Shown: positions 10,381 through 39,381 of the stretch, piece after piece
Layout: each line of letters starts with the position of its first letter
Position numbering within the stretch: the first letter of the stretch is position 1
NCBI RefSeq assembly: GCF_018977255.1
Contig: NW_024704742.1
Location: 41,170,001-41,230,000 of the forward strand
Origin: Callorhinchus milii
Lineage: Eukaryota
DNA length: 60,000 nucleotides
Direction of reading: 5' to 3'
The notes under the pieces: model-generated
Databases searched by the model: none
Told to the model about the DNA's origin: nothing
What the model saw: the letters and a program-made list of their open reading frames with translations, nothing else
Made by a program: the position numbers and the translations under genes

Positions 10381-11157
10381 TAATCCATTATATGGGAACA
10401 TAGAAACACACAGGACTGGAAATTACCACTGCATACCATCTGAGCATTCCAAAGTTTGACGAATAACATACTCTAATTTCTTATATTATTCAATTATTTC
10501 TTTCCTTAAAAACCTAGCTAGCACCCTCTTCAAATCTGCTTGCACTGCTCATCTGCACTCTCCCTGGCAATGTACTCCATGGTTGGAGCCCAAATTGGAA
10601 TCAGTGACATAGTCTTAACCCTTTGTGATAGCAATTGCCCACTAATTTGAACACAGAACAAAATACACTCACAATAATCGAACACCATTTCTCTGCTCCA
10701 ATTTAAAGTAACAAGAATGTTACTGAATACTGTATGTGGTTTTATGCAGTTACGTGACAGAGAGCATCTGTGTTTTAATGATTCCCTGGGGGTGCAATGA
10801 ACATTCCTGATTTACTGCAGCAGTTTTGACTCATTTACTTGTGGATTTCTCGTCCCAGTACAGTTGACATCGTCATTGCTTTGTTGATCAGATGAAGAGC
10901 GTTAATTTTATTGTCAAACCAATCATCCCTATTAGTCAAAACAGACTGGAAACAGGTCAATCAGGAACAAAAGAGGATTTGGAGCAATACTGAGATGGCT
11001 CTTTCATGTGATCAGCCATTGTACAATGAATAAGTCAGGAAAATAAATAACTTTAAAAACATACATGGAAAGAAATTCCACCTGGGTCTAGATTTACGCA
11101 TTGGGTAGCATTTTAGACTATCCAGAATTTGGCAAATTGTTTAACTTGTAAGCTGGT

Positions 11158-12250
11158 TCAGACCATATCTCTCACGCTGCCTCCACTTCATCTCCACAAA
11201 TGGTTTCTCCTCTAGCCCCCGCACCATTCCTCAGGGCTCTGTCCTTGGTCCCCTCCTCTTCAATATCTATATGCTCCCTCTTGGTGACACCATCCGCAGG
11301 CATGAGGTCAACTTCCACATGTATGCGGATGACACCCAACTATACCTCTCTGCCTCCACCCATGACTCCAGGACGCCTGCTGTCCTGACAGAATGTCTGT
11401 CGGACATCAAGTCCTGGATAAGAGCTAACTTTCTTCAGTTGAACGTCAACAAGACCGAGGCTCTCCTGATTGACTCCCGTCAGCACCTCCTCACCTCAGG
11501 TGCTGACAGCATCACCATCCATGGTTGCAAGCTCCACCTTGCTAAGCCAGTCCAGAACCTTGACATCTTGTTTGATCCTCAATTATCCTTTCTACCCCAC
11601 ATCTGCGCCATGACCCGCTCTGCCTTCCCCCACCTCCGCAACATCGCCCGGCTCCGCCACTGTCTCATCGAGGTTTGACTATGCAAATTCATTGCTTGTC
11701 GAACTCCCCAATTCCTCCCTCCACAGGCTGCAGATCATCCAGAACTCTGCAGCCCGTGTCATCTCCCGCACTAGGCGCCGCGATCCTATCACCTCCATTC
11801 TTGCCCAACTCCACTAGTATCACACAGAGGATACATTCAAGATCCTGGTCCTCACCTTCAAAGCCCTCCGTGGTCTTGCTCCCCCCTACCTCTGTGACCT
11901 GCTAACCCCTTACCATCTTGCTCGCTCCCTCCGATCAGCGGGCTCTGGCCTATTTCATGTCCCCTGCCTCGCTCGCCACACTATTGGCAGGTGGGCCTTC
12001 TGCCACTCTGCCCCCACCCTCTGGAACTCCATCCCGCAGTCCCTCCCCCTCCCTCGCCCCCTCCCTCTCCACCTTCAAGACCCATCTCAAGACCCTCCTC
12101 TTCGACCGTGCCTCCGATCTCCCTGCTTCCCCCCCCTGCCCTCCACCCTCCCTGACCCCGACCCTTAGCTCGGGTCTGAAACTCTGTCTGTCCAGCACCT
12201 TAGGATGTCCTCCCAACGTGAAAGTCGCTATACAAATGTAATTTTGTTGT
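11158..12250 (+). mobile_element. L2 LINE 3' fragment with RT YADD
   Basis: ORF 11271-11678 MYADDTQLY; 3' tail at ~12195-12250. Confidence 0.9.
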
Positions 12251-18735: not shown

Positions 18736-20111
18736 TTAACAAACAACTCGATGATATACTGGAAAGCAGGATGGCTATTTTGGAAGGAATATCGTACTAT
18801 AGCAACAACTCTATCATCTCGGATTCAGATTTCTTTCTTACTCATTCAACAGTTTTGTGTAGCGAGAGAGAATTGCATCCTGTAAAGCACTTTGAGACGT
18901 TTTGACAAAGTGATACGGTGCTTTATTAAACACAAGGATTATTATAATTTTTTTAGCAATTTTTTTTCAAAGCCAGTTGACTAGGAAATTAAAATGTTTA
19001 AAGTTAATTGTATCATTGTTGTCACAATATTGGTTCAGGTAGCGACAGCCCTTGAACTCATTTGACCATATTCTAACAGCATACTCCAACTACCATCTTC
19101 CTGTAACAGCAAGATCTTTCTTAAATTAATTTGCATCCTGGCCTCTGATACTCTTCCTAGTAAACGTTTAAATTTTTTAAATGTTCTCTTTGTGAAGACA
19201 TACTTCCTGGTGTCTGTCTTGAAATTGGCCAGACACCAGGAAGGACATTCTTACTGGAGAAATTATATTTTTCAGTGCGAGCAGTCTGCTTTACATATGG
19301 GAGTCAGTCAGTCAGTTAAGGGTAAAAACTAGAAGGGAATGCATTGACAGCTGTAAGCCATCATTAAAAGATTTTCAGAAAACTATGAAATGCATTGTCC
19401 TTCATCCTGCACTTGGTCATGAGACAAATTTGTTCCTGTTTTCTTTTCACAAAACATCTCCTTAAAACTCCGAGCTAAACTTGGCTAAATGTGCTGCAGA
19501 ACCAGCTGTCTTCCAACAAATGATGATCAAAACATTGACTCTCCATTCCCTTCTCTTCCTCCCCCACTCTCCCTTATGTCAAGTTTATATCCCCAGGGCT
19601 GCCTGACATGTGTTCGCTTCTTCGCAAGGGTTTTAGCTGTTCTCAGCATTGGCCACTGGGTGGAACACTTCACTCCATCCTTGATCATTTAAACAAGGGT
19701 ATTGGGAACAATAGTCTATGGTTACTGTCCTGAGGGAAAAAACGTGAAGGCAAGAGGTTCCAAACAAACCCTGGAATATAATAACTTGCACCACCTCAGC
19801 CAAATGGGACAACATTTTCTAACATTCATCAACAGCATGGAACACCAAAATAGGATTACAATATCTCCTTCATTGAAGTTTTGCTCTTGTTTGAATAGGG
19901 TTCAGGAATTAACAAATATTACTATACTTATACAGCAATGAATCAATAATGGCATTCAGTCAATCTCATTCAAGAAGGAAAGGCCAGTTCAATGGGATAG
20001 CAATGCTACATACTCACAAATATACGCGTATAAACCTAAGCGTATAGATTTAATCAGAGAGCATTATGCACAAGATAAAATGTTCATAGTAAGTAGATGA
20101 CTGCACCTTAC

Positions 20112-20150
20112 CCCATATCTGGTTCTGTGAAGGATGATGGATATGCAGGA
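20112..20150 (-). CDS. LDB1-like: LDB-family coding exon equivalent to LDB1 exon 3: PAYPSSFTEPDM(G)
   Basis: Acceptor tttttctcattgtcattcag|T and donor ATGGG|gtaagg; 39 nt, phase 2-2, in frame with the preceding exon. Aligns to LDB1 PTPMYPPTYLEPGIG (P..YP....EP..G). Confidence 0.85.
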
Positions 20151-21099
20151 CTGAATGACAATGAGAAAAACACATAATTACAAACATATGCAATAAATAA
20201 CCCAGCTAACAATGCATAAAACATGAACAGCTTTGTATTTTGAAACTATAAAATCCCATTGGTACTAGCAGCATTGTGGAGAAAAATCACCAAATTCATT
20301 TTATTTTAGATACATTTCTATGTTTGTGCATGGTTTTGACTTACTCCGATGGTAGCTTTGGGATGCTACCCTGGGTGAGGGACCTATATAAATGCAAGTT
20401 GTTGTTACTCCACAGTTCAACATTTCCAGCTTTAAGGTCAAACCATTCTTCAGCATTAGATCTAAGATTTTAAATGTGATGCTGCAGCGAGTAAACTAAA
20501 GGTAAAATCGATTAAAAACAAATAACCTCGGTAGCCAAACCTTAAAGCAAAGGTTTATATGGGACAAGGTCAGGCGACACACAGGGAGTTTATTGTGCTG
20601 ACATAGTTTTTCCATACCCAGAGCGGCTTAAGCAACTAAGAAAAGTTACAGACTATTGGTAAATCAGTTGTAGAATACACAACTTTGCAAAATGAAATCA
20701 AATCAAAACAATCTTGTGTGTCTTGGTCTAAACACAGATTAGAATATGGCCCAGGCATTAAATGCCATCAGAAATTCATTTTCAAAATCGCTGGTACCCA
20801 AATGTACAGATTATTATTATTCAAGTAATGGCAGTGGAGGCTGGAGAATGCATCTAAATATCAGACAGCTTTGCTCCCAGCCTTTTCCCAATTCCGTTCA
20901 TATTATTTGGGCAGCGTAAATTGTAAACCATATATTTTAAATTGTTTTGATGCGCCCAAATGTCTTGTCATCACACTGCCTCGAGCAATGACATCTGGCA
21001 TGACTCAGCACATCACTGGACGCACTTGCTCCTGCACTGGACTTTTCAATTATGAGTCAGATCTCCCATAAATGCTGAGGCAACAGGACATCTGACTGC

Positions 21100-21450
21100 A
21101 AATAATAATAATAATGATAATAATAATCCTTGCATTTGATATATAGCCCTTTAACCTTGTTGAGAAGTTTCAAAGCGCTTCACAGAATATACAGTAGAGT
21201 GAATTGACTGTATATTTTGTGGGAAATGCAGCAGCCAATTGTGCAAAGTAGTGTCCCACAAACAGTCGTGGATTTGGGTGAACAAATTATTATTATTTTT
21301 TAGGGATTATTACCCCTGGAAAACAATCTGCTAATAGACTAACAACCGGCGCATTACTGCTAGGTAAACAGACGTGTGAAGTAACGAAACTTGCCTCAGG
21401 TTTTGCCCTGCCAGGGAATCAAACCTGGGTCCTCTTACTTGCAAGACTCC
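21100..21450 (-). mobile_element. tRNA-derived SINE, long older variant
   Basis: Similarity to the 43820-44182 copy, including the (TAA)n end. Confidence 0.8.
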
Positions 21451-21881
21451 AAACAGGGTTCTTCCAAATTTGCAGGCTTGCCTCAGGAGAGAAGCTGGTC
21501 ACGTAAAAGCAGCACAGGAAAATTGCAATGGGCTGCATTCACTGAGCAACCTTCAATTAAACCTTCATTCTAGCAACTTCAAAACATTAGCACTGAACCT
21601 TTCTTTAAGGTGGTTAGAACCATTTTCAGAGCAGCCCTTCTGATTTATTTTAGGACAGAACTGTGGGCTTGGCCCTTTGTCTGAACCTAGATAAAGAGTT
21701 GCCCACAAAGCATTAACCTGTCTTTCCCCTGCAGAAGCTGGTTGACTAACTTCTTGTTGCAGCTTTTATTTTGGGCTTGCAATATTTTTACTTTATGTCT
21801 GCAAAGCAAATTTAAATGACTTGCTTCAAGCCAAAGCACAAACAAGCATCAAACTAGGGTTTGTGAAAACATTACACTTAC

Positions 21882-21990
21882 CCCATGTCTCGATCCAACA
21901 TAGTATTGGAGTTGAATGGGAAGGGAATCGGGAAGGTCGGTTGAAATTCTTGTGGTGAGTACAGTTTGGAAGGTTTCAATGGGTAATAGC
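21882..21990 (-). CDS. LDB1-like: LDB-family coding exon equivalent to LDB1 exon 2: (G)YYPLKPSKLYSPQEFQPTFPIPFPFNSNTMLDRDM(G)
   Basis: Acceptor ttcttttattgcttttccag|GC and donor ATGGG|gtaagt; 109 nt, phase 1 to phase 2 as in LDB1 exon 2. Contains the KLYSP and MLDRD motifs; MLDRD is the start of the short LDB1 isoform. Confidence 0.85.
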
Positions 21991-22944
21991 CTGGAAAAGC
22001 AATAAAAGAATGACAATTTCAATCCATTTATAAACCTGAATGCCCGTCATGCCTACACCAAATGCTGCTGTTTCATGCAATCCACGGGCCTGTGCATCCA
22101 CTTCATGCCCCAAGCCTTTTCTCCAAGGGAGCGAATACAACAGAACCCGGCTGGCTTTAAGAGAAACTGAACTTACTGTAAACCTGTCCAATGAAAGCAA
22201 TGTCACACTGGCCTGAAAGGCACAATGAATGTACATCAAAAATGACGGTTTGAAATAAATCATCCTTGCTACACTGATGGGAGTATAAGCCTCCTTTTAA
22301 GATGTAATATCATAACTGGACCGTTCTCTTTTGTAAGAGAAATAAATGTATGTATCTGACGCTTCAAATAGGTGAATATTAAGCGACTGAATTATTTTCT
22401 TCTATGATTCAATGTGAGTTCTCACCATAGGTCAAAAGGGCAATGATTGCTATGATGATTGGGTGGAGGACTGAAAAGAAATCTTTGATTGCTTAAATTT
22501 CATGGCTCAGCTCACAATGGGGTGGGGGTGGGGGGGGGGGGGAGAAGGGGAGCTGGATCCTCAATGGGAATTCAGTTCTATCCGTTCTCAAGACAGAAAT
22601 GAGCTGAAATCAACTTGTGCTGAACCTGTGCTGTGCAGATAAACGCACAGACGTCTCCACACTAACAATAATAATACAGTAATTGGGAAATATTCTACTC
22701 TTTTTTGTCCAGGGGCTCTAACGTTTCTAGCAAGTGGCTAATTTGGGGGTGGAGGAGCGAGGGTTAGAGATGGTTCTCGAATTAATGGTAATAAGGCAGG
22801 CAAATGATATTTCACTTACAACCCCTAAAGCAGACCTGCTGTAAACTCTACACTACTAAATATTCACAGTTAATTCAAATTCGCTAAAGAAATGGAAACA
22901 TAAAAATGATTGCCTGCAGTAGTACATTTAATATTTCATAAGGT

Positions 22945-24445
22945 TATTAGGAACATAGGAACAGAAGTAGGCCATTCATCTCCTTGAGCTTGTTCCACCA
23001 ATCAAAAAAGATCATGGCTGATCTGTACCTCAACTCCAATTACCCACCCTTGCCCCATATCCCTTGATAATCTTACCTAACAAGTATCTATCCATTTCAG
23101 TCTTGATAATTTGAATGGATCCAGCATCCACAGCCTTTTGGGGGAAAGTTCCAGATTTCCACTATCCTTTGGTTGAAAAACTGCCTCCTGCTTTCACTCC
23201 TAAATGGCCTAGCTCTAATTTTAAGATTATGACCCCCTTATTCTGGATTCCCCACCAGAGGAAATAGTTTATCTTTATCTACCCTATTGGATCCCTTTAT
23301 TATTTTAAAAACCTCAATTAGATCACCCATCAACCTCCTCAAATCAAGAGAATAGAGACCAAGTTTATGCAACCTGTCCTCATAGTTCAACCCTTTAAGC
23401 CCTGGTATAATTCTGGTGAATCTGTGCTGCATCCCCTCCAGAGCCAATATATCCTTTCTGAGGTGTGGTGCCTAAAACTGAACACAGTACTCTAGATGGA
23501 GTCTGACCAAGGCCTATAAAGTTGAAGCATCATTTCCTCTTCTTTATATTGCAACCCCTTGTGATAAACGCCAACATCCCATCAGCCTTTTCGATAACTT
23601 TTTGCACCTGTGAGTTTGTTTTTAGTGATTTGTGTACGTGGACACCCAAACCCTTTGCTCCTCCACAGTTCTTAGCTTTGAAAATATTAGAAATATGCTG
23701 TTTTGGTATTTTGGGATCCATAGTGGATGTCAACACACTTCCCCACATTGAATTCCATCTTCCAAAGTTTTGCCCACTCACTTAATCTAAGTCCCTTTGT
23801 AACATCCTGCTCCCATCTACACAGTTTACTGTGCCTCCTAACTTTGTGCCATCTGCAGATTTTAATATAAAACTCTTTATTCCTTCATCCAAGTCATTTA
23901 TATCATAGAATCATAGAATGTTACAGCACAGAAGGAAGCCATTCGGCCCATTGTGTCTGTGGCAGCTCTTTGAAAAGAGAATTCAATCCCACTCCCCCAC
24001 TCTCTCCCCATACCCTGCAAACTTGTCCTCCCCAAATAATTATCCATATATATGGTGAAAAGCTGAGGCCCTAGTACAGAGACACCTGGGGCCACCACTT
24101 ATCACGTCCCATCAATCAGAGAACCTTCCTTTTATCCCTACTCTCTGTTTCCTGCTTCCCAATCAATTACCAAGCAATGTTACCTCTGAATCCATCCGCT
24201 TTCATTTTTGCTAATAACCTCTTGTGTGGAACCTTATCAAATGCCTTCTGAAAGTCCATGTAGATGACATCCATAGACACTCTTGTCCACCATGTTAGTG
24301 ACCTCCTCAAAAAATTCAATTAGATTCATCAGACATGACCTACACTTAATAAATCCATGCTGACTCTCTTTGATGAGCTCATACTTGTCCAAATGCTCAG
24401 TCACTCTGACCCTGATGAGAGATTTACCCACTAATCCATCATGCT
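22945..24445 (-). mobile_element. CR1 LINE 3' part (RT), with a short second CR1-type 3' tail inserted at ~23900-24045
   Basis: QHGFIKCRSCLMNLIEFFEEV, SVLGPQLFTIY, YEDRLHKLGLYSL...GDLIEVFKI; CR1 3' UTR at ~22950; (atcataga) tail at ~23902. Confidence 0.88.
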
Positions 24446-25770
24446 TTCTATGCAGTTGTATCCAGCTAAGGTAGAGGTACTGGCTGTGTGTAGTCAAGGA
24501 ACAATGAATGGAAAATTTGTAAAAGCAGGAATTTATTACTAGATGTTTGAGCAAAGCTCAAAAGTAATGGGATAAACATTGAAGAGCCACGATAGAAGAT
24601 CAACTCATGTACATAAAAGAAGCAGTACACTTTACAGTAAATCCTGTGAAACATTTTGAGGCATCATGCCATTGAGAAAGGCGCTGCATCAAATGCAACA
24701 ATTATTATTATAAAAAGGTACAACAACAATTTACATTTATTTAGTGCACTTCACACGTGGTAGAGTCTTGCAGCTCCAGAAGGGTAAGGGGAAAGTGAAA
24801 GGAATTAGATAGCTCCTCCAGAGAAGCGAGACTACGATGAGCCAAATGGCTTTTTTCTATGTTACAACATGTGATTGAATTCAATGAAACATTACAATCA
24901 TAGGATTATCTCAATATACTACAATATTGTGGACAATCAATACAGAAGGTATTCCCTTCGGCAGTTTAACGGGGAACATGTTTTCTCAGAGGCTGTAAAT
25001 GCTGTTAGGTAATAAAATTAGCAGAATGTGGCTGGAGATTGGGAAGAATACAGAAGGCCTATGCTGATTTTTAACACTCCTATCAGTGTACTGAGGTAGT
25101 TATGGAATATGGGATTGCATCTCATTACCTGCACTCCAAAATGCTATCCAGAGTGAAAAGCAATTTATGAATGCAAGTTGTTGTTGTTATTTATCAAGGC
25201 ACATTTGGGAGGCTGGTTTGAGGGTGGCTCGGGAGGTGAGAGAGAATAAATTCAGGGTGTCTCAAATATTGTGCTATTCCTAAAGACAGTTAAAAAAAAT
25301 TCTCACAGCATCATTTGGGCAACGCAATTCACGCAGCGGCTGAAATAAATGTTAAACACTGCAGTGGTCTCTAGTGGCAGAAGCTAGGTAGCACAAGCTT
25401 CTTATCAAACATTTTCCCCCTGCTTTTTCTTCCACTCTGACTAAGTACCTTTCTTCCTCATCTTCCCTGCCAAGAAAACACCTAAATCAAATCATAATTA
25501 AATTCTCAGCTCCGAACAACAGGAAAATATCTTTTAAATGAAATGAACTGAAATCAGATGCAAAATATATCACAGCTCCCTTTTTAGCTGCACTTCACAC
25601 TTTGCAAATCATTCCAGTAACAAAATGCAGCTATAGATGTAAGTGCGATTTCAACTAGGATTTTCTTTTCTTATCTTTTCAATCAACATTCCTGCAAGAA
25701 AATCATCTGAAACACACTCAGATCTCAAGTGCTTCTGTGTGATGAAGGTGCATGCCTCCCAGAAGCTCAC

Positions 25771-25791
25771 CAGATAGTGAATACAGGAACC
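25771..25791 (-). CDS. Candidate 21-nt symmetric microexon, (G)FLYSLS(G)
   Basis: tactgcatttgcag|GGTTCCTGTATTCACTATCTG|gtgagc; phase 1-1, frame-preserving and stop-free between the putative first coding exon and exon 2. Confidence 0.35.
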
Positions 25792-27407
25792 CTGCAAATG
25801 CAGTACTGAATATATAAACACACATAGCAGCATATATATTCCACTTGTCATTCAAGATCAAAAGGAAAACATGACATAGAGGTGAAGCATTTCAAGTGCT
25901 TCAGAGGACAACAGAAGTGGAATGCAGCTCATACTGGAGGAGAATTACTTGGAAGCTGAGCATGTGAGTGTAACACAGCACCAAAGAGTTATCTCAACAA
26001 CACAACAACCTGAATTTAATAGCGCCCTTCATGCAGGTAGCATCTCAGAGCGCTTTACAGCGGCGTGGTTTTGATGCCAACAATAATAATGCCTGAGTAG
26101 TTTGTTTAATAATAATAATAATCCTTGCATTTGATATAGCGCCTTAAAGTGCTTCACAGAATATCCTGTAAAGTGAATTATCTGAATATTTTTGTCAATT
26201 TAATTTTGTACATAAAATTTAATTATATGTGTAAAATTTTATTTTATATTTCAAAAATATCCAAGTTGCAAAGAGAGGGGAGATGAGGCCACGGTCAAAG
26301 AGGAAAGTCTACAGGGGGATTGCAAGCCGTGCTATAAGGGGTCAAGACAGAGAGATTGAGGCAGGGAGTTCCAGAAATTCATGGTACAGTGGCTGAAAGC
26401 ACGACCACCAATGGTGGAGTGGAGAGGACAAGGGACGTGCAGAAAACCCGAGATCTCAGTCTGTTATTTTCATAGTAGTATTTTACCTGTATTTTACCTT
26501 GGCGTTTAATGTCTCCAACACCGAAAGGCCCTCAGAGGAACTGTGCAATCAGATCATAAATCAGCACATACTTTCTTTGAAAAGAAATGACAAATTGTTT
26601 TCAGTTCTCCAGCAAAGTGAAAACACTGCCATCTTTCTCACAGTGAGGACAGACACCGAGCAGCAGATATCCACCATGAGATTATTAAAATCCTTGCATT
26701 TGATATAGCGCCTTATCACGTCTTCGCGACATCTCAAAGCGCTTCACAGAATATACTGTAAAGTGAATTGACTGTATATTTTGTTTATAAAGGTATGAAA
26801 AACTCATTAATTACCATTAAGAAAATGTGAAGCATTTTGCCACAATCTTCAGAGAGATATGGACTGACTACCAGTTGTGTTTATTTTCCTTTTTTCTGCC
26901 TGGTCTTGGATCTTTGCAAAATTACCCGCTCACCATGGTTTTGAGCTCCAATACCTTCTCAAAGATTTTTCTTCCTCTCGATGTGGTTGGCACAGATATT
27001 GTCATTTTTTTAAAGTTACTTTCCGTTTTCTAATTTTCTCCCTAATAGCAGTCACTTTGCTCCTGGTTCCTAGCCTCTTCATGCTAAGGTGCAATTCCAT
27101 GAGCACTATAGTACTCCACCAAAATCACCATTCTTCACCTGATAGCCTTGGCGGTGAGTGTCTGCAGGACACTGTGGAGAGCATCACAGTCAAGCCTGAC
27201 CTCTCCTCACCCAACAGACACATGTACCCACCCTATCAGTGGAGGGACCAGGAGCAGGAACTCTGGTTGGGATTCCCCTCCTTAACCCCTGGGAGGGCTG
27301 GAACCAATCTATCCTCCCGCTACAACACAAGTTGAGACCAGCATACTCAGCAGGGACCAGAATTCAAACCAGTGAGCTCCTGGTTAATAATCATTTTTTT
27401 AAAGTTT

Positions 27408-27728
27408 ACTAATAATAATCCTTGCATTTGATATAGCGCCTTATCACGTCTTCGAGACATCTCAAAGCACTTCACAGAATATACTGTAAAGTGAATTGAC
27501 TGTATATTTGTGGGGGAAACGCGGCAGTCAATTGTGCACAAGCAGTGTCCCACAAACAGTCATGGATTGAAGTGACCAATTTATTATTTTTTTCTTGAAG
27601 GATTATTATCAGGCGTGTGGAGTAACAAAACTTGCCCAAGGTTTCACCCTGCTGGGAATCGAACCCAGGTCTCTCGTTTGTGAGGCTTGCGAGGCGAGTG
27701 CTCTAACCACTGAGCTATGGGACTCCAC
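27408..27728 (-). mobile_element. tRNA-derived SINE, older tail variant
   Basis: Same head and body as the other copies; tail gagatgtctcgaagacgtgataaggcgc. Confidence 0.85.
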
Positions 27729-27954
27729 ATATTCACTGCATCATCAGGACTGCCCAAGGCACCACAAAGTGGTGGTGGCAGAGTCCATTGTAGGTTTCAA
27801 GCAGGAATATATGACGGGTATGAAGGGTAGAGGCATGAAGGGGTATGGGGATAAGGCCAGTGGAATTGAAAGTGGAGCTGGTGCAGAATCAACTCTGCTT
27901 TCAACCCAGCTCTACTTTCAACCCAGAGACCTGGGTTCGATTCCCACACCAGGC

Positions 27955-28340
27955 TCCGTGACCCGATCACCCCCATCCTCGCCCGACTCCACTGACTTCC
28001 CATCACACAGAGGATACAGTTCAAGATCCTGGTCTTCACGTTCAAAGCCCTCCATGGTCTTGCTACCCTCTACCTCTGCGACCTCCTAACCCCCTACCAA
28101 CCTGCCCGCTCCCTCTGCTCAGCAGGCTCTGGCCTGCTTCACGTGCTCCACCTCACCCGCCCCACGATTGGTGGGCAGGCCTTCTGCCCCTACCCTCTGG
28201 AACTCCATCTCAAGACCCTCCTCTTCAATCTTGCCTTCGGTCACCATCCTCCCACCTGCCCCCCAGCCTCCCTGATCCCGATCCAAAACATTGATTGTCG
28301 CTTTGCGATGTCCTCCTGACATGAAAGGCGTTATAAAAAC
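27955..28340 (+). mobile_element. L2 3' fragment
   Basis: Nucleotide similarity to the other family-A L2 3' ends. Confidence 0.8.
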
Positions 28341-29119
28341 CTGATGTCTCAATGTGCCAAATGGTCTCCTTCTGCTCTGTAAATTTCTACAATTCCATGA
28401 TTTTTCCAATGATTGTTTTTGTCATCAAATGTAGTGGCACTAATTTGTTCTAATAGCAGCCATAAGGTGAATAACCAATTAATGTGGAGGATTATTGGCT
28501 AGGACATTCAGAGAAATTCCCTTCTCTTTTCAAAAATGCATCATGGTATCTTTAATATTCACTTGAACAGACAAAGAGAGCCTCACTTTAATGTTTCTTT
28601 TGAGATCAAGAACTCTATAGCACAGAACTGATGCTTTTCCAATCCCCGCAGGTCACCCATATGACCTCTCTGAGTGAGACTCCAATTTGTGTCAGAGAGA
28701 GTAGCTTGTGAGCTATGAGAATGTGTCAAGTACAAATTGGTTGAACCGTCCTAATTTTATTTCACATGGGATCCTGACACACTTCACTCCTCTGCGTTTT
28801 TATTTCAAGTTACATCCTTGACGCTTTTGCTATTCATACAATTACAAATGGTCCCGAGGAATGACTCGGAAGGCGAGGAAAAGGCAGCCACTGGGTGTAA
28901 GCAGGCAGATTTAATAATAACACAATAGAATATCACCGCACAGATACTCGGAGGGGGAAGGACAAAATAGCTCATGCAGGACAGTTGTTACTGTGAAAAT
29001 AAATCTCAGGATTAGTGAGAAAACGGTTGATTTAAAAAAAGGCTCTCTCTGACTCAGTGGAGGATGCTAGTTGAAGTTCAAGATTTTTGTGTTGTTTCTT
29101 CCACAACCCCCCCCCCCCA

Positions 29120-29470
29120 ACAACTCACATTTATATAGCGCCCCTCACACAGGGCAATGTCCCAGAGTGCTTGACAATGGCGGAGCACAATGCCAAGCCA
29201 GGGGGAATAGTGGAACGGAGGGCATGAGGGATAAGCAGGAGGCTGGAGCCAGTCGAACGGAGGCAACAGGTAGTGGGTTGGGAGTAAGCCGGTCGGAGAG
29301 GTAGGGAGGTGCCAGGTCATTAAAGGATTTGAAAATGAGTGTGAGGATCTTGAAATCGATCCGTTCGGCGATAGGGAGCAATCGGAGCCTGTGTGATTGG
29401 GGTATGCAATTTTGTACGGGTGAGTATGCGGGCGGCGGAGTTTTAGATCAGCTGGATCCTGTGCATGGTG
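29120..29470 (-). mobile_element. L2 3' fragment (family B)
   Basis: LPIAERIDFKILTL. Confidence 0.78.
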
Positions 29471-30139
29471 AAGCTGGTTCAAGCTCCATGTTGGGCCTTT
29501 TATCTCACAGTCCAGGCTGACACTCCAACTCAGTGCTGGAGGTGTGCTGAATTATCGTGATTGCCTGTTCAGGTGGAAGCTAAAGTTCCTAAGGCACGAT
29601 TCAAAAAGAAAAGGGAGTTTCTTCCAGTGTCCTGGCTAACAATCCCTCAGGTGAAATTGATCATTCACCTTATGGCTGTTGGTGGGGCATTGTTATCCAC
29701 AAATTATCTACCACGTTTGCCTACAACCTTTACAGTATATCCTGTGAAATGCTTTGAGATGTCTTCTTGACGTGAAAGGTGCTATACAAAATGTAAGGAT
29801 TATTCATTATTTTAAAACCTGAGCCTTGCTGTCCATAAACTTTGGCGATGGTTTTATGAACTTTCACAGCTGCTTTACAAACCTTTTCAGAAGCATTGGT
29901 TACGTTAGGTGTGTAAAAGTTGACAGTCCGCCAAGAAAACAAAATTCTCTTAATTTATCACACTGCTCATTCCCTGAATCATTGATGGTAAAGCATCCTT
30001 GTCTTAGGCAAGCAAAACTCATTCCGATGAGCTGTTGTTTTTACGCTGCTCTTTGTCACACTGACCAAAGAGTATAACAAGCTGAAAAAATCTTGAATGG
30101 AGGGAAAAATGTCTACATTCCTTTGCTCTTGGCTTAATT

Positions 30140-30520
30140 CTTAATCGAGTTCAAGATGGCTCTCTTGTCAACAAATCCCTTCACGCCCTGGCACCTCCCT
30201 ACCTTTCTGACCTCCTTTCTCCTCATTCCATTACCCGCTGCCTCTGCTCGGCTGATTCTGGCCTCCTGTTTGTCCCTCGTCCCCTTTACTCCACCATCAG
30301 CAGCCGCGCTTTCAGCCACTACACTCCGAAGCTTTGGAACTCTCTCCTTCAACCCACCACCTTGTCCCCTCGCTCCCCTCTTTTGGATCACAATTAAAGA
30401 CCTTCCTCTTCGACGGTGCTTAGGGTCACCTCCTCCCTGCCCCAGGCTCTGGGTCACTGTTAAGCGCTCCGAGACGCTGCCCGGCGTGAAAGGCGCAATA
30501 TAAATGCATGTTATTGTTGA
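30140..30520 (+). mobile_element. L2 3' fragment (family B)
   Basis: Tail aagcgctccgagacgctgcccggcgtgaaaggcgc, as in the 8197 copy. Confidence 0.78.
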
Positions 30521-31799
30521 ATGGCATCATCTATAAAAGTGTACAAGAGGGAACAAGTTGTTGAGTGCAGATTCTCCTGAAGCCCATGTTACGATCAAAC
30601 AAATGACAGATTGTCAAAAGTAAAATATTCATAACAGCTACAAGCAAATGACATTAAAAGGAGCATTGGGATTCTCCTTGTCAGGTAACAATAACTAAAT
30701 GCTCTAATTGTGCTGACGGCTGCCACCATTAGAGGAAGAATTGTACAGGCAAAAGCTTTCATTTTAAGTGCTATAATTGATGGAATTGTGTGTACATGCT
30801 TACTCATTCTTTTGCTATTACTTAATATAAATGGCGTCCCTTTTGGAAAAAAATATAAAGTATTTGCAACTTTGTAAACTTTTTGCATCCGGTAAATGAT
30901 GCACGAGCAATTTCTGCAATACTGCACTGTATGAGAACATAAACTTCTGTATCAAGGATCTTAAAACACCATCCCTCACAATTCAAAATAAAAACGTAGC
31001 AAGGCAGAGTCACTCTGGAGAAATTGGAATGCTACATATGCATTACACATGCAAAGCCAAAAATGATTGTGAGGGTCTTTCTAAATCTGCAAAGTCACCA
31101 ATAAACAATATGTTTATTTATACATATTTGGGGCAGCAAAGAAATCTGAAATACAATGCCATCGTGCACGTTTAACAGCAACTAATACATTTGTTCACTT
31201 TCAGGACGATCTATACTCGCATGTTCAAACCTACCAACACAATGAAGAATGTAACAGTCACCACATTACAAACTAATCAATGGAGAATATGGATGTTTAG
31301 AAATCAATTCCTCACAATAAATACATCACTGAGCACACTGACCTTTTAAATGCATCATTAATAGCCTCCCCCCATCCCAACCCCACACACACCTTGAATT
31401 CTGGACACCCTTTCAGCAGTCAGAAATAGGTACACAAACCAGCTTTGAGTTAGCAAGTTTCATTCAAAAATGTCCAGCAACTGTTCATGTAAAGGCCTGG
31501 ACTTTGAAATGATTGTTTACCATATCTCACACAATACACACGCAGCTAAAGATAGCACTGCCATCAATCACTGGAGTTTACCTGATGCGCAGTTCTGTAA
31601 TATCCACACACACACACACAATACACAGCAAAAATGTAAGATACATTATTCCCCACATGCTTTGAGTACAACTATAATTGGCATTTTTCAAAAATTAATC
31701 AGCCAGGGCATTGCTTCCACAGCCCAGTACATACAGCTACATCGTAAAGTCATAAGCAGCAAAACAACCCCGGCTGTACATATTCCATCATTACTCTAC

Positions 31800-31848
31800 C
31801 TGAGTCTGTAAGACTAGAGCAGCAGTTCATGAACACAATGTCTTCCAT
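31800..31848 (-). CDS. Putative first coding exon of the LDB-like gene: MEDIVFMNCCSSLTDS(G)
   Basis: ATG in strong Kozak context (ggagATGG), 16 codons + 1 nt, then CAG|gtagag. Phase 1 joins in frame to exon 21882-21990. It sits in a repeat-free, CpG-containing block (~31800-32450). Confidence 0.5.
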
Positions 31849-32854
31849 CTCCAGAGGGAATGGACCTCAGATGATGAGGGGTGGACTGTGACCGGCAGAG
31901 GGGTGCGCTGTACTGAGGATGTAACCGAAGGCTGTGCAGTGTCAGTGAGTGGCTCAGCCTGCTCGAGCTGGGTTCATGCTGTGCCACTTGTGAGAGGATG
32001 GATGATATAATCTCTTGAATGAAAAAAATGTCTCTCAGGGGGCAGCCTCCCTTATACAGCATAATCCAGAACCCAAACAATTCATCAAACTTCACTCGAC
32101 AGCCATTTGTGCAGACAATGGTGTTGCATTTTCTACTTTCTGCTCATTTAAGCCTATCTGCTGCTCTGGAGTTTGTGCCTGACATATTGATTTCTCCACT
32201 GTACATGTGACCCGTAGAGACACGCTGTGCACCGGAACCGCAGCCACTAAGTGAGGCTACACCAGAGCACAAACACGTAAAGCAAAACTCCGCCGCAAAG
32301 ACAGTGTTACAAACTAGTTTGATTTATTTAATGCGTCAAACTGTCAGAACACTACAGTTTCTTGAATTCCCCTTTCTCTGGTGCGCGCACTCACTCACAC
32401 TGTGAGTCTGTGCCCATGTATGGCCTGGGGCTCTGCACTGTCTATAATTACTGCTGTATAGAAAATGACAGCCACCAACTTATGATTCTCTACGAGTAGA
32501 TGCAGAATGATAGGGGTTACAGTGACCTTTTACTAAACTGTACATGCCAGGAGTGAATACCGTTTTACTGTTTTCATCTGGTTCAATTAGCAACTGGCTC
32601 TCTCAGGACAACCAACAAGGCAGAACATTTCAATTTGTCTTTGTCCCTCACCTGTCAGAAGGGAAGTTTCCTTTCTCGCTCTCCTTTTGCCCTCTCCTCT
32701 TTCTGGGGAAGCTCACCCAATAACCAACATGAACCTCTTTAGACAGGGTTCATTCCAACAACCTCAACAACTTGCATTTATATAGCATCCTTCATGCAGG
32801 GTAGCGAACAGTGGTGGAGCCTGAAGCCAAGCCGGTGGGGGGAATGTGACTGTA

Positions 32855-34992: not shown

Positions 34993-37636
34993 CAACAACA
35001 ACAACAACAACAAGATTCCATTTATAAAGCGCCTTTCACGTCAGGAGGACGTCCCAAGGCGCTGCACAGTTGGGTCATGACCCGAGCAGGGGGGAAATGG
35101 TCAGGGTGAGGGGAGGGAAGGGAGGGAGCGAGGAGGGGGGAAATGGTCAGGGTGAGGGGAGGGATGGGAGGGAGCGAGAAGGGGGAAGAGAGTCGAGAGG
35201 GGAGCTGAAGGCTCGGTCACAGAGAAAGGTTTTGAGACCGGCCTTGAAGGAGGAGAGAGAGGAAGCAAGGCGAAGGCACTGGGGGATAGAGTTCCAGAGC
35301 CTCGGGGCTGAGAGGCTGAAGGCCCGACCACCGATGGTAGGGCGGTTGGGGCGGGGGACGTGGAGCAGACCGGAGCCGGAGGAACGGAGGGTACGGGCAG
35401 GTAGGTAGGGGGATAGTAGGTTGGAGAGGTAGGAGGGAGCAAGGCCGTGAATGGCCTTGTAGGTGAGGATGAGGATCTTGAAATCAATCCTCTGGGGGAT
35501 GGGGAGCCAGTGGAGGCGAGCGAGGGTGGGAGTGATGTGGTCCCGAAGCCTGGTGCGGGACAGTACACGAGCTGCAGAGTTCTGAATGACCTGCAGCTTG
35601 TGGAGGGAGGTGGCGGGAAGGCCGGCGAGGAGAGAGTTCCCATAGTCCAGCCTTGAGGTGACAAAGGCGTGGACCAGGGTTTCAGCAGCGTGAGGGGTGA
35701 GGTAGTGCCGTAGTCTGGCGATGTTCCGGAGGTGATGGAAGGCGGTGCCAGTTGTGGTGCGGATGTGAGGGAGAAAGGACAGCTCAGGGTCGAACAAAAC
35801 GCCGAGGTTCCTGACTGGCTTTGAGAGGTGGAGAGTGCAGCCTTGGATGCTGATGGTGTCGGCGCCTGAGGTGCGGAGGCGCTGACGTGAACCAATCAGG
35901 AGGGCCTCGGTTTTTCGCACGTTGAGCTGAAGAAAGTTGTCTCTCGTCCAGGACTCGATGTCGGACAGGCAGGCTGTCAGGACATCGGTGGTCGTGGAGT
36001 TGAGAGTAGAGGAGGAAAGGTAGAGTTGGGTGTCATCCGCATACATGTGGAAGTTAACTCCATGTCTGCGGATGATGTCACCAAGGGGGAGCATATAGAG
36101 GGTGAAGAGGAGGGGACCGAGGACAGAGCCCTGAGGGACACCACATGAGACAGTACGGGGGGTGGAGGAGAAGCCATTCGTCGAGACAAAGTGAAGACGG
36201 TGAGAAAGGTACGACCTAAACCATTCAAGGACAGTGCCTTGAAGGTTGAGGTGGGAGGACAAGCGGTGGAGTAGGATAGCGTGGTCGACCGTATCGAATG
36301 CTGCCGATAGGTCGAGGAGGACGAGGAGGCAGAGGGAGCCCTGGTCACAGATGGTCAGGATATCATTGGTGACCTTGACCAGGGCAGTTTCTGTGCTATG
36401 GGCAGCACGGAAACCTGACTGAAGGGGTTCGAAAAGAGAATGGGTGGAAAGGAAAGAGCGCAGTTGGGAGGCGACAACTCTTTCCAAGACCTTGGAGAGA
36501 AAGGGGAGGTTGGAGATGGGCCGGTAGCTTGATAGCTGCGACGCATCAAGGGAGGGTTTTTTCAGGGTGGGCGTGATGGTGGCAGTTTTTAAGGGAATGG
36601 GGACAGAGCCAGAGGAGAGGGACAGGTTGATGATGTCAGTGATATGTGGGGCAAGAAAGTGGAGCTGGGAGATAAGGAGTGGAGTGGGGATGGGGTCAAG
36701 GGAGCAGGTGGTTGGTTTTAGGGATAGGATGAGTTCAGTGACAGAGGGTGGGGAAACGGGTACAAAAGTGTGTAGGGGAGGATGGGTAGGAGTCGGAGTG
36801 TGGGAGTGAGGGGGTGGGGGTTGGTGGATGTTGGAGGGGAAGTGACCGCGGAGCGATTCCCTTGATCTTGGATTCAAGGAAATCCAGCATCTCCTCGCAG
36901 TGAAGGTTGGAGGAGATGACCTGCGCGGGGTGGCGGGGGGGACGGAGGAGTCGGGTTGTGGTGGAAAACAGTAGCCTGGGGTTGTTCTTCGCCTCCAGGA
37001 TTATCCTGGAGTAGAAGGACGACTTGGCCGAGGCTAGAGTGGAGCGGTAAATTTTGAGGAGGTCCAGCCAGATTTGTCGGTGGACCGTTAGGCCAGATTT
37101 GGCACAGGTGCGTTCAGCAGCCCGCACCTGGCTCTTCAGTGAGCGGAGGTGGGTGGTGTACCAGGGGGAGGAGCGGGAGTAGGAGACAGTGCGGGAAGTG
37201 ATGGGGGCAAGAGTATCGAGTGTGGAGGAGAGGGTATTGTGGAGGAGGGAGAGAGGAGAAGAGGGGTCGGTGAGGGTTGAAGGCCAGAGGGAGAGGAGTT
37301 CAGAGGACTCCAAGGCATCGGTTAGGGATTGTGGGGGTAACTTCTTCCAAGGGCGGTAGAAGATGGTGGTGGGTCTGGTGGAGGTGGGGAGGAGGGTGGA
37401 GGTGGTGAAGGAGATGAAGTAGTGGTCAGAGATGGCCTTGTCGGTAATAGTGACATCCGAGACACTGAGGCCCCGGGTGATCACCAAATCGAGTGGGTGG
37501 CCGTGACTGTGAGTGGGGGAGTTTATGTGTAAGGAGAGGTTGAGTGAGGAGAGCAGGGAAGAGAAGTCTGTGGAGATGGAGCAGGAGGGGGTGAAGTGTA
37601 GGTTAAAGTCGCCCAGGATGATGAGGCGATCAGAGC
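34993..37636 (-). mobile_element. Young 5'-truncated L2 LINE (partial endonuclease + full RT) nested in the CR1
   Basis: ORFs 36735-37487 and 35147-36877 with [50 protein letters not shown]; 3' stem-loop and (TTG)n tail at ~34993-35060. Confidence 0.95.
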
Positions 37637-39381
37637 AGAGTGATCACAATATGATTGTATTCTGCATTAAGTTAGAGAGGGATATAGTTAAATCCGAGGC
37701 AAGTATTCTGAATTTAAATAGGGCTAATGTTGTAGGTATGAGGAAAGATTTAGGTAAAATAGACTGGAGAATAAGATTAAGAGGTAAAAATGTAGACCAA
37801 CAGTGGCAAATATTTAAGGATGTAGTGCAACATTCTCAGCGGTCGCATATTCCCTTGCGGAATAAGAGTACCACAGGGAAAGCAATTCATCCGTGGCTAA
37901 CTAGAGCAGTTAGGGAAAGCATCAAATTAAAAGAAAAAGCTTATAAAACTGCCAAGAAAGGCGGCAAATCTGAAGATTGGGAGAGTTTTAGAAACCAGCA
38001 AAATAAAACTAAAAAACTCAATAAGAGCGAGAAAAAGGGAGTAAGAGGGTAGGAACATTAAGTCTGATTGTAAAAGTTTTTACAAATATATTAAGAGGAA
38101 TAGGCTAGTGAGGGTAAATGTAGGTCCACTTCAGTCAGAGATGGGAGAAGTTGTAATGGGGGACAAGGACATGGCAGAGTCCCTAAATGGGTACTTTGCA
38201 TCTGTCTGCACCCTAGAAGACACAACAAGTCTACCAACAGTAGAAATGCACCAAAGGGATAAGGAAAGGGATAACTTAGGGAAATTTTCATTAGTAGAGA
38301 ATTGGTGATTGGGAAACTGTTAGCACTAAAAAGTGACAAATCCCCTGGTCCGGATGGCTTGCATCCCAGGGTTTTAAAAGAGGTAGCTTATGAGATAGTG
38401 GAGGCCTTGTGTCTGATCTTCCAAAATTCCTTGGATTCTGGAACAGTCCCCATGGATTGGAAGATCGCAAATGTCACACCACTATTTAAAAAAGGTGGAA
38501 AGGAAAAGATGGGGAACTATAAGCCAGTTAGTCTCACATCAGTGATAGGAAACATTTTAGAATCATTAATTAAGGATGTGGTAGTGCAGTATTTAGGGAA
38601 GCACAATATAATTAGGCCAAGTCAACATGGCTTTACAAAAGGGAAGTCATGTTTGACAAATCTCATAGAGTTTTTTTAGGATATTTCCAGTAAACTAGAT
38701 AAGGGTGAATCAGTGGATGTGGTCTATTTGGACTTCCAGAAGGCATTCGATAAGTTGCCACATAAAAGGTTAGTCCAAAACATAAGGGCCCATGGAATTG
38801 CGGGGAGCATATTAACGTGGATTGGGGAATGGTTAACGGGTAGGAAACAAAGAGTAGGGATAACGGGTCATTTTCAGATTGGCGGGATGTGACTAGTGGA
38901 GTGCCACAAGGATCAGTCCTTGGGCCTCAGCTATTTACATCTACATCAACGATCTAGATGAGGACATCGAAGTTAATATATCTAAATTTGCGGATGACAC
39001 AAAACTAGGAGGAAGTGTCAACACAGAGGACGACATTAAAAAAATGCAATGAGACATAGATAGGTTAGGTGATTGGACAGGTAGGTGGCAGATGAAGTAT
39101 AATGTAGGGAAGTGCGAAGTCATCCACCTAGGTAGCAAAAACAGTAGAGCGGGTTATATTTTTAGAAGGGGAGAGATTGGAATGTATTCGCGTCCAGAGG
39201 GACTTGGGAGTCCTTGTCCACCAATCACAGAAAGTTAGTCTACAGGTGCAGCAGCAATTAGGAAGGCGAACGTTATGTTAGCATTCATTATGAAAGGATT
39301 AGAGTATAAGAGTAGGGAAATCTTGCTGCAACTGTATAGGGCCTGTGTCCAGTTTTGGTCTCCTCATTTAAGGATGTAGGA

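Follow-up and report, generated by a model that had tools for sequence, protein, structure and literature searches.

The N-termini of LDB1 and LDB2 are called "highly diverged" in a figure legend of PMC8033514, and the accessible portion of PMC2446394 tabulates Ldb1 and Ldb2 alone for bony vertebrates. LDB1 begins with three small 5′ coding exons (long form MSVGCACPG..., short form MLDRDVG... from the ATG of an internal MLDRD), the third of which joins the segment starting RHTPY, and canonical vertebrate LDB2 begins MSS(T/A)PHDPFYSSPFGPFYR. In one paper the string MLDRD serves as the peptide for an antibody to LDB1. Here we describe a 60,000-nucleotide (nt) stretch of the Callorhinchus milii genome (C1:41170001-41230000 of the 991.5-Mb assembly; C1, C7 and C28 denote contigs, and the whole stretch is referred to as the window), which carries on its minus strand three 5′ coding exons of LDB1 type, herewith named 1a, 2a and 3a. 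With a probability of roughly 0.93, the C. milii LDB2 orthologue has its distal 5′ end in the window, with exons 1a-3a expressed from an upstream promoter. The exons are upstream coding exons of LDB2 that are already annotated and public in RefSeq and Ensembl, and represent no new gene copy. The literature searched yielded no account of an LDB2 with exons of LDB1 type, nor of a third LDB gene, subscription journals and bioRxiv supplements lying outside this search.

LDB1-type exons of the window and the gene to which they belong

Exon 2a is located at window positions 21882-21990 (minus strand, 109 nt) between the acceptor ttgcttttccag/GC and the donor GG/gtaagt (the slash marks the exon border), and encodes (G)YYPLKPSKLYSPQEFQPTFPIPFPFNSNTMLDRDM(G), the homologue of LDB1 exon 2, while exon 3a at 20112-20150 (minus strand, 39 nt), between the acceptor tcattcag/T and the donor GG/gtaagg, encodes (G)PAYPSSFTEPDM(G), the homologue of LDB1 exon 3 (PTPMYPPTYLEPGIG). 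Both acceptors are pyrimidine-rich and end in AG, and a Gly codon is split at each junction. Exon 2a is entered in phase 1 and left in phase 2, and exon 3a is entered and left in phase 2, in agreement with exons 2 and 3 of the LDB1 gene on C7 of this genome, which also matches in the bases at the exon ends (GC as the first two, GG as the last two). A sequence-only reading of the window had proposed that two exons splice in frame here with the intron phases of LDB1; splice sites, phases and translations bear this out, and the LDB1 and LDB2 sequences that it cited agree with database proteins.

By six-frame peptide search we found a further coding exon that the sequence-only reading had passed over, exon 1a at 31800-31848 (minus strand), encoding MEDIVFMNCCSSLTDS and supplying base 1 of a split Gly codon before the donor CAG/gtagag. 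It carries two ATG codons, at 31848 and 31830, and the 5′ untranslated region continues farther upstream; the whole coding part forms the N-terminus of the Ensembl model P0016, and the part from the second ATG that of the RefSeq isoforms X1-X7. After splicing in a script, exons 1a, 2a and 3a (197 nt) gave residues 1-65 of P0016 exactly, with 2 bases over for the next codon. Exon 3a is contained in P0005-P0011, P0013 and P0016, and the shorter models begin at the internal ATG of exon 2a (MLDRDMG). The introns on the same strand are intron 1a (21991-31799, 9,809 nt, bounded by splice sites and packed with interspersed repeats), intron 2a (20151-21881, 1,731 nt) and intron 3a, of which the first 20 kb (1-20111) lie in the window and which ends outside it, after a total of 78,940 nt, at the acceptor ttttatag/G at C1:41111172. 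No LDB-like frame was found within window positions 1-20111, either by genome search with the LDB2 model P0009 or by six-frame peptide search.

When compared with LDB1, the encoded N-terminus is identical at 32 of 63 positions and shares KLYSP, TMLDRD(V/M)G and YPxx(Y/F)xEPxxG, together with the three small coding exons, the internal MLDRD ATG for a shorter form and the joining of the third exon to RHTPY. The C. milii LDB2 gene differs by 3 residues more in exon 2a and 2 fewer in exon 3a, by the length of intron 3a (79 kb as against less than 1 kb in the LDB1 of this genome) and by the body behind the exons, which is that of LDB2. In BLASTP comparison, the exon 2a peptide gave E=4e-5 (16/30 identical) with an LDB1 protein and E=5e-14 (23/34) with a cat-shark LDB2 isoform, a similarity beyond that expected by chance.

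Within 5.8 billion proteins, the exon 2a peptide found a 100% match (E=1.4e-16) in the C. milii LDB2 isoform XP_042196824.1, and exons 1a-3a make up the exact N-terminus of C. milii models named "LIM domain-binding protein 2" (RefSeq X1-X7 and one from Ensembl); these models join them to core exons of LDB2 that lie 79-237 kb farther downstream, likewise on the minus strand of C1. Among 15 members examined of the corresponding 90% cluster, 8 consist of exons 1a-3a plus the LDB2 body, 3 start with MLDRDMG in exon 2a, and the remaining 4 start with the canonical MSSAPHDPF (MSSAPHDPFYSSPFGPFYR), the first exon present in P0012, P0015, P0017 and P0018. The body has the domains of the LDB/Chip family of LIM-domain-binding proteins: P0009 (459 residues) carries LIM_bind (Pfam PF01803, E=4.7e-28, residues 72-225) and the C-terminal LIM-interaction domain (LID; Pfam PF17916, E=1.3e-11, residues 384-412), and chains of LDB1 LID complexes in the PDB match its residues 378-425.

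The profile search of the genome with PF01803 detected three LIM_bind loci, at C7:27.399 Mb, C1:41.007-41.010 Mb and C28:4.207 Mb. A search of the whole genome with P0009 returned 24 rows at E<=2.1e-5, which fall on C1 (10), C7 (7) and C28 (7), and 4 rows elsewhere with E>1. The rows on C1 keep a co-linear order along the minus strand, running from 41,191,9xx (exon 2a of the window) to 40,964,349, a coding span of about 237 kb, and in the same search no second set of LDB core exons was found between C1:41,111,227 and 41,190,112. A tree of the core region was constructed by IQ-TREE with 29 rows and 222 columns, for which the C7 and C28 rows were pseudo-proteins assembled from tblastn pieces; of 32 sequences chosen, 3 lacked the anchor motifs and were dropped. 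The downstream core exons on C1 group with LDB2 (87/85) and not with LDB1, and are 98% identical to white-shark LDB2 over the 222 columns; the C7 gene falls inside LDB1 (99/98), and the C28 gene inside an elasmobranch "LDB1-like" clade of RHTPYMSQPEYR type (100/100), which is sister to LDB1 (100/97) and leaves the C1 gene outside. Gene order leads to the same assignment, with prominin (C1:40.793-40.825 Mb), DUF747/TAPT1 (40.918-40.925 Mb) and LDB2 following one another on the minus strand, both neighbours being downstream of LDB2; Prom1-Tapt1-Ldb2 linkage is described for teleosts, human and chicken in the accessible portion of PMC2446394. As an additional marker of paralogous regions we tried PF03066 (nucleoplasmin), which matched at C13 and C1:70.9 Mb and gave no match near the LDB loci.

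Two other assignments of the exons have to be weighed against these results. The sequence-only reading had considered a third LDB paralogue, the 5′ end of which would lie in the window and the body outside it, and this would agree with a peptide that is only about half identical to LDB1 and differs from the canonical LDB2 start, in a genome in which a third LDB gene is truly present. That gene, however, occupies a different contig (C28:4.205-4.213 Mb), where it is equipped with an MLDRDIG-type piece of its own; the sole LDB core exons downstream on the C1 minus strand are those of LDB2, placed in its clade and beside TAPT1 and prominin, and not only do the database models join the window exons to this core, but shark LDB2 models carry the same exons. 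Since the downstream exons belong to LDB2, and since separate LDB1 and LDB2 loci exist, a third paralogue in the window is very improbable, and the candidate for a new vertebrate gene is thereby removed. A fast-evolving LDB1 orthologue would explain why exon structure and phases are shared with LDB1 and why KLYSP, TMLDRD and EPxxG recur in both, but has next to no chance of being correct: the canonical LDB1 on C7, with its own exon 2 (GCSSKSFKLYSPKEPPNGNAFPPYHPGSMLDRDVG), an exon 3 identical at 15 of 15 residues to that of elephant LDB1 (P0066) and a core inside LDB1, refutes it, as the sequence-only reading had anticipated when it judged the exons unfit for an LDB1 orthologue. The other possibility offered there, LDB2 with N-terminal exons of LDB1 type, is the one supported here, with the addition that the same gene also has a canonical first exon starting MSSAPHDPF.

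Two alternative starts of LDB2

After intron 3a, the long form continues with exon 4 (RHTPYVVQPDYRIYELNKRLQTRTE; RHTPY...) at C1:41111171-41111096 (76 nt). The canonical start codon is located at C1:41111227, 56 bases upstream of exon 4, with which it shares the reading frame, and no intron separates the two, so that the canonical first coding exon (C1:41111096-41111227, minus strand, locus L036) overlaps the acceptor of intron 3a. The long-form acceptor ttttatag/G lies inside canonical codons 17-19 (Phe-Tyr-Arg), and the pyrimidine tract CCTTTCTATTCCTCTCCTTTTGGACCGTTTTATAG with its AG is read in the canonical frame as PFYSSPFGPFYR. As the sequence directly shows, the canonical N-terminus of LDB2, the 19 residues MSSAPHDPFYSSPFGPFYR, is therefore a translated 3′ splice region and not a diverged copy of exons 2a and 3a. 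The stretch upstream of LDB1 exon 4 on C7 contains an in-frame stop and no such peptide.

From this arrangement, the following mode of expression can be proposed. An upstream promoter would serve exons 1a-3a, and the 79-kb intron would be spliced out to exon 4, followed by the LDB2 body with its dimerisation domain, LIM_bind region, nuclear localisation stretch and LIM-interaction domain; the product would be an LDB2 of which the first 60 or so residues are of LDB1 type (KLYSP...TMLDRDMG / PAYPSSFTEPDMG). A second, proximal promoter inside intron 3a would give the canonical first exon that runs through the 3′ splice site. Two promoters may allow tissue- or stage-specific use, and promoter choice may be the main effect of this layout.

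For transcript evidence, contigs of four runs (X1, X2, X4 and X5), which are only guessed to be RNA, were aligned to window positions 19900-32400. Two contigs from two different studies, X2 record 10 (336 nt) and X5 record 25 (365 nt), match positions 21882-21991 with 0 differences, base 21991 being ambiguous as exon 1a also ends in G, and extend beyond exon 2a by 158+68 and 53+202 letters, respectively, without continuing into the flanking introns. In length, these additional letters are compatible with exon 3a (39 nt) followed by exon 4 (76 nt) and further sequence. Contigs bounded by exon 2a in this manner are what spliced transcripts would give, the runs being of guessed RNA nature and the junctions deduced from contig ends and lengths.

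Several observations weigh against the use of exons 1a-3a in vivo and thus against the assignment proposed here. The long LDB2 isoforms are represented by computed models of RefSeq (XP_) and Ensembl, and the UniProt entries V9KP73, V9KKM5 and V9KPF8, which we take to be cDNA-derived, all start from the proximal MSSAPHDPF; among the listed runs with the window stretch none is on record as RNA, and in the joint table the joints 1a-2a, 2a-3a and 3a-4 are masked by repeats, with 533 joints and 1,782 loose ends unlisted. These points would suit exons that are relics strung onto LDB2 by gene predictors and hardly or not at all used in vivo. Such relics are nevertheless very unlikely, as the exons have kept open frames and intact splice sites, and the matching contigs of the two studies leave the genomic sequence precisely at the borders of exon 2a and continue with different letters. 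The split between chimaeras and sharks is deep, and neutral DNA would not keep the identity observed with cat-shark models, 68% for exon 2a and 12 of 13 residues for exon 3a. As a separate observation on introns 1a and 2a, repeat copies at window positions 20317-20733, 21151-21567 and 25738-27822 reach a summed contig depth of up to about 2.7e5 and yield hundreds of false joints in the aligned runs.

At the protein level, the alternative 5′ exons alter only the residues ahead of RHTPY. Solved chains of the LDB1 and LDB2 dimerisation domain in the PDB start at positions equivalent to P0009 residues 53-63, and exons 1a and 2a and nearly all of exon 3a are therefore outside all solved structure, one chain alone (6ptl) reaching the last residues of exon 3a; the 35-residue exon 2a peptide by itself matched nothing in the PDB at E<=10. 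The AlphaFold2 model from the 29-row alignment had a mean predicted local distance difference test score (pLDDT) of 36.7 and a predicted template modelling score (pTM) of 0.30, too poor to inform on the N-terminal tail. The tail would be flexible and precede the folded dimerisation domain. The persistence of KLYSP, TMLDRD and YPxxFxEPxxG since the separation of LDB1 and LDB2 points to selection on the peptide, and the motifs in common with LDB1 may have been kept for some interaction or modification.

Distribution and origin of the two starts

Canonical vertebrate LDB2 comes from this same gene and shares every exon from exon 4 on, and differs in promoter and N-terminus, the canonical start not being homologous to exons 2a and 3a. 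Orthologues of exons 1a, 2a and 3a are found in elasmobranch LDB2, for example in isoforms X1 of Scyliorhinus torazame (P0178) and Heterodontus francisci (P0034), to which the window N-terminus is identical at 56 of 73 and 45 of 60 positions, respectively. The cat-shark X1 model contains all three exons (MEEMIMNCCSGLSLTESGCYLLKHSKLYSPQELEPIISIPFSFSSRTMLDREMGPAYPSSFSEPDMG, start MEEMIMNCCSGLSLTESG), and in the horn-shark X1 model a single additional cassette separates exons 3a and 4. The elasmobranch LDB2 counterparts of exon 3a read PTYPSSFSEPDMG or STYPSSFTEPDMG, and most elasmobranch models begin at the MLDRD methionine, many isoforms starting MLDRDMGPTYPSSFSEPDMG.

In the hagfish Myxine glutinosa, LDB2-like models start either with MLDREPGPFPPSYMEPDVG or with ...DPFYSSPFGPFYR and are identical at 382 of 382 residues from RHTPY on, which indicates that one gene makes both N-termini. 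The hagfish differs in that the models listed contain no KLYSP-type exon, and its placement in the tree relative to LDB2 is weak (81/31). The presence of both N-termini in one hagfish gene suggests that a layout with two alternative N-termini is older than the jawed vertebrates. Among the LDB2 rows listed, those of hagfish, sharks and mammals share the 13 residues DPFYSSPFGPFYR without a difference.

For a wider survey, the best 120 of 727 matches, which were representatives of 90% clusters, were classified by a script according to the N-terminus. Among these matches, 49 rows are of chondrichthyan LDB2 type, with an LDB1-type start in 14 (2 long, including that of the window, and 12 starting MLDRD...), a canonical start in 29 and another start in 6. 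In the 30 rows of bony-vertebrate LDB2 type the start is canonical in 28, and the other 2 carry MLDRDEG (bird P0112) or MLDQDSG (paddlefish P0117) directly before RHTPY. The suggestion of the sequence-only reading that such exons were lost elsewhere holds at best in part: shark and ray LDB2 models and the hagfish gene keep them, and 2 of the 30 bony-vertebrate rows listed have the MLDRDEG or MLDQDSG start. A region search with residues 1-62 returned 4 proteins among 6 candidates and missed the long forms of LDB1, so that it is too insensitive to show absence elsewhere.

Taking these comparisons together, we give an even chance to the following history. At its origin LDB2 would have had three 5′ exons in common with LDB1, and its two promoters would have been in place before hagfish and jawed vertebrates split; the "LDB2-specific" start DPFYSSPFGPFYR would be the acceptor tract of intron 3a exposed by an internal promoter, and both forms would be kept in full by cartilaginous fishes and hagfish, with at most a remnant in bony vertebrates. 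If so, the extreme conservation of DPFYSSPFGPFYR would follow from its double duty as coding sequence and splice signal. On this history, too, a distal LDB2 promoter may have gone unnoticed and may still work in some tetrapods. That the N-termini of LDB1 and LDB2 look unrelated has a simple reason in their being encoded by different exons, the LDB2 of early-branching vertebrates also making an end of LDB1 type. The accessible portion of PMC8033514 describes a mouse line with an allele replacing only the canonical Ldb2 exon 1; if the distal promoter survives in tetrapods, alleles of this kind might spare some LDB2 product. Wider interest in the locus is limited to this origin of the canonical LDB2 start and to the third LDB gene on C28.

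The third LDB gene and other features

The third LDB gene at C28:4204913-4212666 (plus strand; loci L009, L013, L017, L022, L024, L028, L029 and L031) looks complete, as all core exons were found and an MLDRDIG-type piece lies upstream. Its clade mates are named "LIM domain-binding protein 1-like" by NCBI and belong to a cluster of 105 members, of which the 15 listed are all from sharks or rays. A prominin gene is located just downstream both of the C28 LDB gene (C28:4.222-4.236 Mb) and of LDB1 (C7:27.364-27.382 Mb), and another is found two genes past LDB2. This LDB-prominin pair in three paralogous regions fits the C28 gene being a copy from genome duplication without a counterpart in bony vertebrates.

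Within the body of LDB2, models of cartilaginous fishes include extra cassette exons at C1:40977728-40977841 and C1:40995837-40995896 (both minus strand). An insert of 30 residues (GRTSQSAVIPFLLRHTASTPQPRLARPAHN) stands between the QRMVAPP motif and the KRRKRK stretch and is also present in sawfish models, whereas the alignment consensus dominated by other vertebrates runs from QKWQRMVAPP directly into the EPTRQ / KRRKRK stretch without it; a 16-residue insert (VFPQSQCYKREGTSKK) occurs in some C. milii LDB2 isoforms.

Elsewhere in the window, a retroelement of the long interspersed nuclear element (LINE) type was identified at 35147-37643 (minus strand), with a 617-residue frame carrying the reverse-transcriptase domain RVT_1 (E=1e-36) and an overlapping upstream frame of 302 residues without any match in Pfam. 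Fragments of reverse transcriptase are also present at 11145-11678 and 38275-38679 (both plus strand), and many frames of the window end in a ...LHWLPI..RI.FKIL... tail, which is typical of one repeat family. The segment 53968-55970 is richer in GC (0.547), of low complexity and with strong strand skew, contains long plus-strand frames of His, Thr, Ser and Leu, and is apparently a degenerate simple repeat.

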